Shown here one piece after another: positions 30,001 through 33,000 of a stretch of 64,000 bases of DNA. Positions within the stretch are counted from its first letter, which is position 1. Each line of letters starts with the position of its first letter. This DNA is from Escherichia coli (GTDB lineage: Bacteria; Pseudomonadota; Gammaproteobacteria; Enterobacterales; Enterobacteriaceae). The stretch is taken from NCBI RefSeq assembly GCF_001677475.2, contig NZ_CP015229.1; one strand, given 5' to 3'. A program made the position numbers.

Positions 30001-33000
30001 CAAGATAATGGTATGTGCCCGGGAATGCACCTGCTTTATGTAGATGCGTTGATTTTTTGGATAAAAAAAACCAATTGTAAGTTTTTTTCACATTTTATAG
30101 ATACTTTAAGTAGGATAACATGCTGTTTTAACTAGCTATATGCCGGATTTGTCTGCCTGCTGAAAACCATGCCTTAGCCACCAGCACAATAATCTTACAA
30201 AAGGTCATATAAGAATAAATAGATGTTAATAATACAATGGGTTTGTAACGCGAGTATTTAAATATAATATTGCGAGCTAAGTGAAAACGTTAAGTAATTG
30301 AAATAATCTTTCATTAAAAGCGTTTCTTATTGATCGAGAAATAAGTTTTCTATTTAATGCAAATAAGTTAAGGATAAACTGGAATGAAATAAAGTGAGCG
30401 ATATTGTTTACCTGAGAATAATCGGTGAGAAGCAGGGCGATATTTCTTCAGGCTGTGGGACGTATGCGTCGGTTGGTAATCGCTGGCAGGTTGGCCATGA
30501 AGATGAAATTTTTGCCTTTGCACTCACCAACGCCATTACCAGTACTGGTAATGGCGTTAATCTACAGGGGCTACAATTTTGCAAACTCATTGATAAAAGC
30601 TCACCGCTACTGTCTAATGCCATCAATCAGAATGAGCGGTTATTTATTGAAATCGATTTGTATCGTATAAATAAAAGCGGGCGCTGGGAACGGTATTATT
30701 ATATTCAGCTAAGAAATGCTTCATTAACTGCTATTCATGTAAACATTTCTGACAATAATCTTCCTACCGAATGTGTAAATGTTAATTATGACTACATATT
30801 ATGCAAACATCTAATAGCCAATACGGAATTTGACTGGTTGGCCTTTCCTGCTGGCTATAATAGCTTATTTATTCCACCTAAAAACCCACCTGCCAGTAAT
30901 CTTAAGCCTGAGCCGCTACCAGTAGTTAACCTTCCACTCTCTTCACCAGCGGTTAACCCGGTCTATGCCAAATCCTGTCTGAAGGAGAAGGGATGTACAG
31001 ATGCTGGAACGGCAGAAGAACCCGCTGAAAACTTCGGTCAAGTAGCGATTTTTGCTCAGCCAGTGGTTGATGACTGCTGTGGATACCACCATCCCGAGGC
31101 TAACGATGTCGGGCAACCCACAGAAGCTCAAACCATGCTACTGTTTCCGGGGAGTGTGTTGGCGGCTCAAATATGGGGAAAATGGTCGCTCAGTGGCATA
31201 CTCAGTGCAACCCGCGGCTCTTACATCGGTGCGTTGGCATCTGCTTTGTATATTCCCTCTGCGGGCGAGGGCAGTGCTCGCGTGCCCGGACGTGATGAGT
31301 TCTGGTATGAGGAAGAACTGCGGCAGAAAGCACTAGCAGGCAGTACCGCCACCACCCGGGTACGTTTTTTCTGGGGAACTGACATTCACGGCAAGCCTCA
31401 GGTGTATGGTGTTCATACGGGTGAAGGTACGCCGTATGAAAACGTCCGCGTGGCGAACATGCAGTGGAACGAGCAGACGCAGCGTTATGAATTTACCCCC
31501 GCTCACGATGTCGATGGCCCCCTGATTACCTGGACGCCGGAAAATCCGGAACATGGGAATGTTCCGGGCCATACCGGTAACGACAGGCCGCCGCTGGATC
31601 AGCCCACCATTCTGGTGACGCCGATTCCGGACGGTACAGATACCTATACCACGCCGCCATTCCCGGTTCCTGATCCGAAAGAATTCAACGATTATATTCT
31701 GGTTTTTCCGGCGGGATCCGGTATTAAGCCCATCTATGTTTACCTGAAGGAGGATCCGCGAAAGCTGCCTGGTGTTGTAACAGGGCGCGGCGTCCCGCTT
31801 TCATCAGGAACTCGCTGGCTGGATATGTCGGTATCCAATAACGGCAACGGCGCACCAATCCCGGCGCATATTGCTGATAAATTGCGCGGACGGGAGTTTA
31901 AAACCTTTGATGAGTTTCGCGAGGCGCTGTGGCTGGAGGTGAGTCAGGATCCGGAGTTGATAGCGCAGTTTTCAAGTGGTAACCAAGCACGTATAAAACA
32001 AGGATTAACCGCAAAAGCACCTATTGACGGTTGGCATTATGGCCCTAAAGAAATAGTTAAAAAATTCCAGATACATCATCGTGTTGCAATTGAATATGGC
32101 GGCAGCGTATACGATATTGATAATTTACGAATTGTTACCCCCAGACTGCACGATGAGATTCACTACAGGAGATAAATATGTTTAAAGAAAAGCTCCAGGA
32201 TTATACCGAGGATGAATTTCTTAATTTTTTAGGCGGATTGAGATCATCTATGAAAGATGGAAAATCCTTAAAAGGTAAGGAGCTAGAAATGTACTGGGAT
32301 TCATTAGTAGATCATTTTATTGAAATTACACAGCATCCGTCAGGGAGCGATCTAATTTTCTACCCTAAAAGTCAAGGAGATGATAAGCCTGAAAACATCC
32401 TGAAAATTGTCAAAGAATGGCGGCGTTCACAGGGGTTACCCTTGTTTAAAGACTCTAAATAAAGTAGATAATAAAACTATATATGGAACATCATCGCATC
32501 TGGCTAATACGATGATATTAATGACATAAAATAATAATGTGATTGCTCTTAAAAAACAGGTAGAAATACTGAAGCCTCATTAGGTTATTTTATCATTTTC
32601 CCGCTTTTACCGATACCCTTTGGCTGGAGGTGAGTCAGGATCCGGAGTTGATAGCGCAGTTTTCAAGCGGTAATCAAACACGTATAAAACAAGGATGAAT
32701 CGCAAAAGCACCACTTGAAGGTTGGCATTATGGCACTAAAGAAATCGTTAAAAAATTCCACATGTATCATCGTGTTGCGATTGAATATAGTGGCGGAATT
32801 TACGATATTGATAATTTAAGGAGGGCACACCTCATTTGCATGATGAAATTTATTACAGGAGATAGTTAAATGTATAATTTTAAAGATAAAATAGAAGATT
32901 ACACAGAGCGGGAATTCATTGAGTTGCTTGGCGAGTTTACAAATCCAACCGGGGATAACGCTCAATTAAAAGGGGAAGAGCTTGACAAATATTGGGATGA

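Follow-up and report, generated by a model that had tools for sequence, protein, structure and literature searches.

The forward-strand open reading frame at positions 30394–32175 of the window, by which we mean the whole 64-kb stretch of Escherichia coli DNA analyzed here, is almost certainly a real and intact copy of usp, the gene for uropathogenic-specific protein, also known as Hcp-ET3-4. We consider it fairly likely that Usp is an antibacterial effector delivered by a T6SS, and we hold the identification and this mechanism, taken jointly, to be likely. The gene belongs to PAIusp, which comprises usp, imu1, an orphan usp remnant, and imu2, and which is inserted between aroP and pdhR (Table 1). 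usp is not new: earlier publications cover its fusion of Hcp and toxin, its DNase activity, its immunity genes, and its regulation. It was described in 2000 and has served as a standard ExPEC virulence marker from then on, and its Hcp fusion was reportedly characterized by Ma et al. in 2017 (Virulence 8:1189). Because usp has long been known, the discovery value is small, and the locus gives no special leverage on the family's remaining questions beyond that of the reference strains. It does provide a clean positive control, in which a three-module polymorphic toxin was recognized from raw sequence alone.

Table 1. Coordinates of usp, its domains, and the neighboring features of PAIusp in the window
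Feature	Position	Strand	Basis
PAIusp core, ~3.3 kb	30081..33355	.	blastn and local alignment to the NEB10-beta empty site
TyrR-box-like sequence TGTATTGATTTCTTTACG, aroP/usp control region	29941..29958	+	pattern search; K-12 counterpart TGTATTAATTTGTTTACA
-10 hexamer TGGTAT, divergent aroP P3 promoter	30009..30014	+	kept in K-12
Two-codon upstream ORF ATG AAA TAA	30385..30393	+	read from sequence; ends 1 nt before usp GTG
usp (Hcp-ET3-4)	30394..32175	+	593 aa, 65.7 kDa, GTG start, internal stops absent
Hcp/TssD carrier domain, aa 1–146	30394..30831	+	TIGR03344; Pfam T6SS_HCP; Hcp 6a2v at aa 2–145
Variable proline-rich linker, aa 156–188	30859..30957	+	alignment; G+C step
Conserved segment without Pfam model, aa 189–308	30958..31317	+	alignment of relatives
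Pyocin_S domain, aa 309–450	31318..31743	+	Pfam E 3.2e-40; 3mfb E 1e-17
Colicin/pyocin HNH DNase domain, aa 460–591	31771..32166	+	Pfam; PDB sequence search; alignment
imu1 (orfU1), likely cognate immunity gene	32178..32462	+	Colicin_Pyocin (PF01320) E 8e-30
Decayed usp 3' end, ~aa 512–593	32618..32869	+	ORF list and translation
Second immunity gene, imu2-type	32870..33160	+	Colicin_Pyocin (PF01320) E 7e-28

Identity, borders, and expression of the locus

The DNA of usp is 98.7% identical to that of UTI89 tssD (UTI89_RS00600), which lies at the same aroP-pdhR site, and the encoded protein shares 97.6% of its residues with UTI89 Usp (UTI89_C0121), which leaves 14 amino acid differences (6 from the protein of strain A16). 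The window allele is of the uspI type, and the combination of uspI with two ORFs is one that we take to resemble PAIusp type Ib. A review lists UTI89_C0121 as Hcp-ET3-4, a name taken from Ma et al. 2017 (PMC6730261); through this orthologue the sequence-only reading, which had placed the protein in the Hcp-ET class and left the subtype blank, gains its subtype. The classical usp likewise sits on PAIusp, which in UTI89 is found between aroP and pdhR (PMC7142922, PMC3685522). Among complete E. coli genomes, usp was present in 1058 of 5426, and in 1057 genomes the match spanned 80% or more of its length. An intact 593-aa tssD was annotated in every record inspected (25 listed matches and seven fetched regions), in agreement with the claim that the window carries one uninterrupted reading frame; no internal stop was found, and the frame was not interrupted in the other genomes inspected.

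The expectation that K-12 lacks this gene was also correct, as the aroP-pdhR site is empty in the K-12 derivative NEB10-beta. Megablast breakpoints relative to K-12 fall at 29958 and 33425, and weaker homology to the K-12 intergenic region reaches inward to ~30080 and 33356. The island ends have a G+C content of 0.31–0.42, versus 0.51 for the whole window. Within usp, G+C shifts in step with the module borders, and one of these steps falls at the linker, aa 156–188.

We located the likely control region by positional agreement with published sites, the only evidence used here, because matches in consensus scans for TyrR boxes, sigma-70 promoters, and terminators were not above chance alone. 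The hexamer TGGTAT is the wild-type -10 element of P3, the promoter that drives usp (PMC7142922), and its position implies a 5' leader of ~370 nt. Transcription of usp is under the control of TyrR and H-NS, with H-NS acting as a repressor, and the activity of the E. coli P3 is low, ~20-fold below that of the S. bongori P3 (PMC7142922). Induction of usp by urea, temperature, and aromatic amino acids is also reported. At the translational level, AAGGA lies 9 nt upstream of the ATG of the two-codon ORF; as a smaller possibility suggested by this arrangement, the ORF abutting the GTG codon could set usp translation through termination-reinitiation.

H-NS repression and the low activity of P3 raise the possibility that the island is a silent passenger, whose immunity genes protect against usp-positive neighbors while the toxin itself goes undelivered, either through H-NS silencing or for lack of a compatible T6SS. 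usp is moreover an orphan gene with no T6SS cluster nearby, and its GTG start has no nearby Shine-Dalgarno sequence. Silent carriage is nevertheless hard to reconcile with a 593-aa reading frame that is uninterrupted and has lost none of its catalytic residues even though its product is lethal without immunity, that differs from alleles of other lineages at only 6–14 amino acids, and that lies beside a remnant in which unused toxin sequence has decayed fast. We judge silent carriage to be quite unlikely and prefer to view usp as encoding a working, delivered effector.

Domain organization and the case for T6SS delivery

The sequence-only reading divided the protein into an Hcp-like N terminus (residues ~1–155), a middle region resembling S-type pyocins (about 31300–31830), and a C-terminal colicin E9-type DNase with an H-N-H motif, and profile and PDB sequence searches recovered all three modules. 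The NCBIfam TssD model TIGR03344 scored 125 bits (cutoff 58.9) over aa 1–146, its own positions 1–160 of 167 being covered; Pfam T6SS_HCP (PF05638) matched aa 28–139 (E 1.2e-12), and a PDB sequence search returned Hcp structures (6a2v at E 2e-15). Pfam Pyocin_S (PF06958) accounts for the middle region, where its span of 31318–31743 agrees with the range proposed from sequence, and its match was accompanied in the PDB search by the Pyocin_S-type structure 3mfb. Pfam Col-Pyo_DNase (PF21431) matched aa 460–591 (E 8.1e-42), and the PDB search aligned the protein with the DNases of klebicin G, pyocin AP41, and colicins E9, E7, and E2 (E ~1e-28 to 1e-39). Usp residues H561, H562, N577, H586, and H590 align with H102, H103, N118, H127, and H131 of colicin E9, so that the HNH motif is intact, with all catalytic residues kept. 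An AlphaFold2 model of the full-length protein, built from a 43-sequence alignment, had a mean pLDDT of 43.8, with values of 26–60 in the Hcp region, and was confident for the DNase domain alone.

An orthologue of Usp is a non-specific DNase whose activity depends on the HNH motif and which is toxic to its producer without the immunity genes (PMC3685522). From the 97.6% identity and the conserved motif, we infer that the protein in the window would likewise be a DNase neutralized by its immunity protein. Current opinion assigns the Pyocin_S domain a role in inner-membrane translocation (IMT), and the source for this view lists Usp among the T6SS effectors equipped with it (PMC9040868); the Pyocin_S region of Usp is best read in this way, and not as a second toxin. 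Between the Hcp domain and the cargo, conservation is lowest in the linker at aa 156–188, which is the junction of carrier and cargo.

Downstream of this junction lies a segment (aa 189–308) that has no Pfam match and no sequence relative in the PDB. Its sequence, PVYAKSCLKEKGCTDAG...DDCCGY and then the hydrophobic stretch GALASALYIPSAGEGS, contains four conserved cysteines, C195, C201, C228, and C229 (C-x5-C ... CC), ahead of Gly/Ala-rich hydrophobic sequence. Across Hcp-, VgrG-, and PAAR-fused effectors, its conservation is comparable to that of the Pyocin_S domain and exceeds that of the DNase domain. Among the nuclease bacteriocins recovered from the PDB, similarity to Usp does not extend upstream of ~aa 372, and therefore aa 189–308 could be a T6SS-specific element. 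We tentatively suggest, with considerable doubt, that this segment has a function of its own, not previously described, within the nuclease delivery module; it might serve in membrane insertion, redox sensing, or processing and cooperate with the IMT domain in doing so.

The cargo module as a whole is found on several T6SS carriers. VgrG- and PAAR-fused relatives align with Usp from P189 onward, and the NCBIfam model of the MIX effector VPA1263 covers Usp from aa 202. That T6SS carriers (VgrG, PAAR, MIX) are common to this module would argue for T6SS delivery of Usp as well.

The same cargo is also what once suggested a diffusible, colicin- or pyocin-like bacteriocin that enters through an outer-membrane receptor independently of any T6SS, a proposal attributed to Parret and De Mot in PMC3685522. 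The C-terminal 220 aa are indeed homologous to klebicin G, colicins E9 and E7, and pyocins S2 and AP41, and the immunity proteins resemble Im7 and Im9. The similarity, however, starts only at aa 372 (klebicin G) or aa 452 (colicin E9), a near-complete Hcp/TssD N terminus occupies the place where a receptor-binding and Tol/Ton translocation region would be, and the cargo recurs on VgrG and PAAR proteins. We found no LexA/SOS box (CTGT-N8-ACAG, at most one mismatch) in 29871–33582 and no candidate lysis gene between the immunity genes and pdhR, where only short chance ORFs occur. A diffusible bacteriocin is thus very improbable, and we rejected it for its missing receptor/translocation domain, lysis gene, and SOS box.

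For the preferred T6SS-delivered effector, the delivery machine would have to be encoded elsewhere. T6SS genes are absent from the window, which otherwise holds core genes (the dcw cluster through pdh, acnB, and speDE onward), and the S. bongori, C. freundii, and Kluyvera orthologues that we inspected have none within 6–10 kb. Since the window lacks T6SS genes, T6SS delivery of Usp in this strain is only inferred. When aa 1–156 was used to search for the nearest canonical Hcp, every match was either a fragment of an Hcp-ET protein or another orphan Hcp-toxin gene. One orphan Hcp-toxin locus, in S. salamae, combines Hcp with Gln_amidase and Imm35. In the reviews of this work, T6SS dependence is stated explicitly for Hcp-ET1 and Hcp-ET2, and for ET3/ET4 the statements concern antibacterial killing and immunity.

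We propose that the Hcp domain of Usp would take one place in the Hcp ring of such a T6SS. The remaining five positions would probably be filled by ordinary Hcp subunits, since one ring has no room for six 48-kDa extensions; one extended Hcp per ring has been described (PMC13323088). The contracting sheath would fire the tube into a neighboring cell, where the Pyocin_S (IMT) domain, perhaps together with aa 189–308, would move the DNase across the prey inner membrane, a step that could depend on FtsH by analogy with pyocin G and colicins. The HNH DNase would then degrade the prey chromosome unless a matching Imu protein is present.

Immunity genes and the likely target of Usp

The downstream immunity gene that had been predicted is present, and a second copy follows it. 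The ATG start codon of imu1 lies 2 nt past the usp stop codon, with AGGAG within the end of usp; the protein is 100% identical to Imu1 of UTI89, and its relatives in the PDB are Im7, Im9, and the AP41 immunity protein. imu1 is likely the cognate immunity gene of usp. The first immunity protein of the orthologue, OrfU1, forms a tight complex with Usp (PMC3685522), and UPEC Usp is described in reviews, which cite Ma et al. 2017, as antibacterial and neutralized by all three downstream immunity proteins. The product of the second gene is 98–99% identical to Imu2 of UTI89 and of ST131-type strains and 61% identical to Imu1. It is preceded by the usp remnant, which carries an in-frame TGA and a frameshift, and by blastn the block at 32618–33150 is ~77% identical to 31927–32452. 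The remnant is an orphan left by an older cassette. We also considered that the two-immunity array arose by a private recombinational deletion between imu2 and imu3, and we do not claim this firmly, because many genomes, ST131 among them, have the same remnant-imu2-pdhR junction as their usual right end.

Variation among usp alleles is concentrated in aa 518–548 of the DNase domain and is accompanied by matching exchanges of the immunity genes, the pattern that a toxin-immunity arms race would produce. These features bear on whether Usp is mainly a genotoxin and virulence factor directed at mammalian host cells. Usp has been reported to break the DNA of HUVEC and HEK293 cells, and usp has been associated with pyelonephritis, prostatitis, bacteremia, and mouse models of UTI in the accounts given by PMC7142922 and PMC9341358; its inducibility by urea, temperature, and aromatic amino acids points the same way. 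Cognate and orphan immunity genes, displaced remnants, and variation at aa 518–548 are, however, hallmarks of interbacterial polymorphic toxins, and the cargo holds a domain for crossing the bacterial inner membrane. Usp orthologues are also present outside the uropathogens, in S. bongori, Citrobacter, and Kluyvera, and close alleles occur in E. coli from otter feces and prawn gill. We regard a primarily host-directed role as unlikely, and note that host-cell genotoxicity and the interbacterial role that we favor are compatible with each other and not mutually exclusive.

Comparison with known systems

The Usp of UTI89 and UPEC Z42 shares with that of the window its insertion site, its length of 593 aa, its three-domain order, and an identical Imu1. 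The usp-proximal upstream sequence and the -10 hexamer of P3 are conserved between UTI89 and the window, and none of the 14 substitutions in UTI89 Usp falls at a catalytic residue. UTI89 carries three immunity genes and two remnants, whereas the window carries two immunity genes and one remnant, the latter bearing an extra nonsense mutation. The two-immunity form and the imu2-to-pdhR junction are also found in other sequenced genomes, such as S87. Alleles of the uspII type (GN02323 and, by the right-hand junction, ST131 strains) have the same island, site, Hcp domain, linker, and IMT part, and differ from the window protein at 39 amino acids, mostly in the DNase at aa 518–548. Their first immunity gene is imu3-type, and it is followed by an orphan, intact uspI-type C-terminal fragment and an imu1-like gene.

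With colicins E9, E7, and E2, pyocins S2, AP41, and S8, and klebicin G, Usp has in common the HNH DNase fold, the catalytic residues, the Pyocin_S/IMT domain, and Im-type immunity. Unlike these nuclease bacteriocins, it has no receptor-binding or Tol/Ton translocation domain, lysis gene, or SOS box, and carries an Hcp N terminus instead. The cargo from ~aa 189–202 to the end, with the cysteine segment included, is shared by the MIX effector VPA1263 of Vibrio parahaemolyticus and by Pyocin_S-DNase effectors of Pectobacterium, Klebsiella, and Lonsdalea that are fused to VgrG or PAAR. What differs is the carrier, which in these relatives is a MIX cargo, a VgrG spike, or a PAAR tip, and in Usp a subunit of the Hcp tube. 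Hcp-ET1 of STEC004 is also an Hcp fused to an HNH DNase, and its T6SS2-dependent delivery is reported in PMC6730261. Its nuclease belongs to another family (PF01844 HNH), and Hcp-ET1 lacks the Pyocin_S domain that Usp carries.

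Domain architecture, identity and insertion site of usp

The sequence-only reading described one uninterrupted ORF joining an Hcp-like N-terminus, an S-type pyocin-like middle and a colicin E9-type DNase with an H-N-H motif, with an immunity gene downstream. Domain and immunity-gene matches were obtained for each of these parts (see table), and therefore all of the features described are present at the coordinates assigned to them. The NCBIfam TssD model TIGR03344 additionally gave 125 bits over aa 1–146 (cutoff 58.9). In a search against solved structures, the N-terminus matched Hcp structures, the middle region matched 3mfb, and the C-terminus resembled the DNases of klebicin G, pyocins AP41, S2, and S8, and colicins E9, E7, and E2. 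All colicin E9 catalytic residues (H102, H103, N118, H127, and H131) have counterparts in the alignment (H561, H562, N577, H586, and H590). The extension beyond the Hcp domain amounts to 48 kDa. G+C content is a mosaic within this single ORF (0.41 for aa 1–188, 0.55 for aa 189–511, and 0.42 for aa 512–593, with 0.36–0.39 in the immunity genes), and its steps fall at the carrier/cargo junction and at 31927, where a repeated cassette of toxin end plus immunity gene begins.

Features of the usp island and its surroundings
Feature	Position	Strand	Remarks
usp ORF	30394..32175	+	593 aa, GTG start, no internal stop
T6SS_HCP	usp aa 28–139		Pfam, E 1.2e-12
Conserved segment	30958–31317		usp aa 189–308
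Pyocin_S	usp aa 309–450		Pfam, E 3.2e-40
Col-Pyo_DNase	usp aa 460–591		Pfam, E 8.1e-42
imu1, first immunity gene	32178..32462		Colicin_Pyocin, E 8e-30
Decayed usp 3′ end	32618–32869		last ~80 codons
imu2, second immunity gene	32870..33160		Colicin_Pyocin, E 7e-28
TyrR-box-like site	29941–29958		counterpart present in K-12
P3 −10 hexamer	30009–30014		TGGTAT (published)
Upstream ORF	30385–30393		ATG AAA TAA
PssrA	13659–13748	+	Rfam; ftsA/ftsZ junction
STnc40	19395–19464	+	Rfam; 3′ end of ORF 16714–19419
naRNA4	19868–19945	+	Rfam; ~450 nt downstream of ORF 16714–19419
tp2 sRNA	34425–34538	−	Rfam; antisense, pdhR-aceE spacer
Tandem repeats	37234–38102		~300 nt, ~80% identity, within 630-aa ORF 37219–39111

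We are virtually certain that the gene is usp; it belongs to a known, named family, occupies the canonical locus of that family, and is as such already known. Of the 593 residues of the product, 14 differ from Usp of E. coli UTI89 and 6 from that of strain A16, and Imu1 has the same sequence as its UTI89 counterpart; in UTI89, usp sits in the aroP–pdhR interval, with three immunity genes downstream. In a review, UTI89_C0121 is entered as "Hcp-ET3-4 ... Pyocin S3 and colicin DNase", with three immunity-gene copies after it (PMC6730261). The island PAIusp consists of usp (uropathogenic-specific protein) and imu1-3/orfU1-3, and occupies the aroP–pdhR intergenic region in every genome examined by the authors of that work (PMC7142922). 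The 346-aa Usp of the original annotation, cited in PMC3685522, equals translation from M248 of the present ORF. By megablast, usp is carried by 1058 of 5426 complete E. coli genomes, always on the chromosome, and is annotated tssD in every record listed or inspected among the matches.

The absence of the gene from K-12, stated in the sequence-only reading, was borne out in the K-12 derivative NEB10-beta, where the aroP–pdhR site is empty. Megablast breakpoints fall at 29957/33426, beyond which homology to the K-12 intergenic region is weaker but continues inward to ~30080 and ~33356; the inserted segment is therefore ~3.3 kb. The remaining window is collinear core chromosome (dcw cluster, secA, hofBC, nadC, ampDE, aroP, pdhR-aceEF-lpd, acnB, speDE, cueO, gcd, and onward). 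Four Rfam matches above the gathering score were observed along it, two of them at or near ORF 16714–19419, which we infer to be secA. The ORF with internal tandem repeats is aceF by synteny with E. coli S87, and its repeats correspond to the three lipoyl domains that the E2 subunit carries, an ordinary feature.

Cargo module and proposed delivery

An alignment of 42 relatives places the start of a common cargo module at P189, past a variable Pro-rich linker. This module is also fused to VgrG and PAAR proteins, and in usp, from aa 202, it is covered by the NCBIfam model derived from the MIX effector VPA1263. For residues 189–308, neither a Pfam model nor a PDB sequence relative was found, and the nuclease bacteriocins matched in the PDB search have no similarity to them. 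This segment is common to Hcp-, VgrG-, and PAAR-fused Pyocin_S-DNase effectors, is conserved about as well as the Pyocin_S domain and better than the DNase domain, and contains four conserved cysteines (C195, C201, C228, and C229) and a hydrophobic Gly/Ala-rich GALASALYIPSAG run. This uncharacterized segment and the tiny upstream ORF are the only mildly new leads.

We consider a T6SS-delivered antibacterial mechanism likely. The Hcp domain would occupy one position in the Hcp ring of a T6SS whose genes lie elsewhere; only one extended Hcp per ring, beside five ordinary Hcps, has been argued for (PMC13323088). After firing, the Pyocin_S domain would bring the nuclease through the inner membrane of the prey, and the DNase would degrade DNA in the absence of a matching Imu protein. 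Pyocin G needs its Pyocin_S domain, along with FtsH and TonB1, for import across the inner membrane, and the domain occurs in 97.6% of the colicin-DNase T6SS effectors listed in SecReT6, with Usp given as an example (PMC9040868); because of this, calling Pyocin_S a second toxin ("ET3"), as was done earlier, probably misreads the domain for the present architecture. For the orthologue, Usp by itself could not be kept in an expression host, a problem relieved by the orfU genes, Usp and OrfU1 form a tight complex, and Usp in free form has DNase activity that depends on the HNH motif (PMC3685522). As Ma et al. 2017 is summarized in reviews, Hcp-ET3-4 is antibacterial and all three immunity copies help to neutralize it (PMC6730261). 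A diffusible bacteriocin is unlikely: Usp has no receptor or translocation domain, and neither a lysis gene nor an SOS box was found at the locus. No T6SS genes lie in the 64-kb window. The island might, with low probability, be a silent passenger in the present strain.

Immunity array and expression

Both immunity proteins resemble Im7, Im9, and the AP41 immunity protein. The decayed usp copy between their genes is disrupted by an in-frame TGA and a frameshift and directly precedes the second gene; usp 3′ end plus imu1 (31927–32452) and remnant plus imu2 (32618–33150) share ~77% identity. As an orphan toxin remnant, this copy stems from cassette displacement. The window carries a uspI-type allele and two immunity genes, an array also present in S87, whereas UTI89 has two decayed remnants. 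The DNase of E. coli GN02323 departs from that of the window mainly at aa 518–548, and its first immunity gene is of the imu3 type; there follow an intact uspI-type C-terminal fragment and an imu1-like gene, then another remnant and imu2. Among the GN02323 remnants, one persists as an unbroken 78-aa reading frame with the HNH motif. The remnant–imu2–pdhR junction is common, ST131 strains included. The allele comparison shows cassette displacement, typical of polymorphic toxins. Usp is also published as a genotoxin against mammalian cells, a role compatible with, and not exclusive of, an antibacterial one; against it as the sole explanation, locus evolution resembles that of an interbacterial toxin, and the gene also occurs in non-uropathogens. 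The PAIusp repeats recombine, and the immunity array both expands and contracts. E. coli AVS0285 (NZ_CP124326.1, 3809–6188) carries a four-immunity array (imu1, imu2, imu3, and imu2 again) with three remnants.

No Shine–Dalgarno sequence was found near the usp GTG. The two-codon upstream ORF ends 1 nt before it, and AAGGA lies 9 nt upstream of that ORF's own ATG. In Citrobacter freundii and Kluyvera, ATG GAA TGA overlaps the ATG start of the usp orthologue; in Salmonella bongori, an in-frame ATG stands five codons upstream. Such an arrangement may provide termination-reinitiation control of usp. The imu1 ATG lies 2 nt past the usp stop, with AGGAG within the usp end, an arrangement consistent with coupled translation. 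Transcription of the orthologue starts from aroP P3, activated by TyrR with phenylalanine and repressed by H-NS (PMC7142922).

Related loci in other genera

The same island lies at aroP–pdhR in S. bongori, as already published (PMC7142922), and in C. freundii, and Kluyvera carries it at another site; the module was therefore inserted there independently of the aroP–pdhR site. Throughout the S. bongori, C. freundii, and Kluyvera orthologues surveyed, the gene is an orphan with immunity genes and never adjoins T6SS genes. In Kluyvera intermedia (10001–12035), the orthologue has 69% identity and a single immunity gene, flanked on one side by a Na/H-exchanger gene and on the other by dadX/dadA-like genes. 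Another orphan Hcp-toxin locus is that of Salmonella enterica subsp. salamae (CP070222.1, 10001–11435). Its Hcp has 172 aa and shares 67% identity with the Usp N-terminus across 62% of the query; the Hcp ORF overlaps one for a Gln_amidase toxin, after which comes Imm35. This locus looks like a frameshifted Hcp-ET with a different toxin class and the same Hcp clade.
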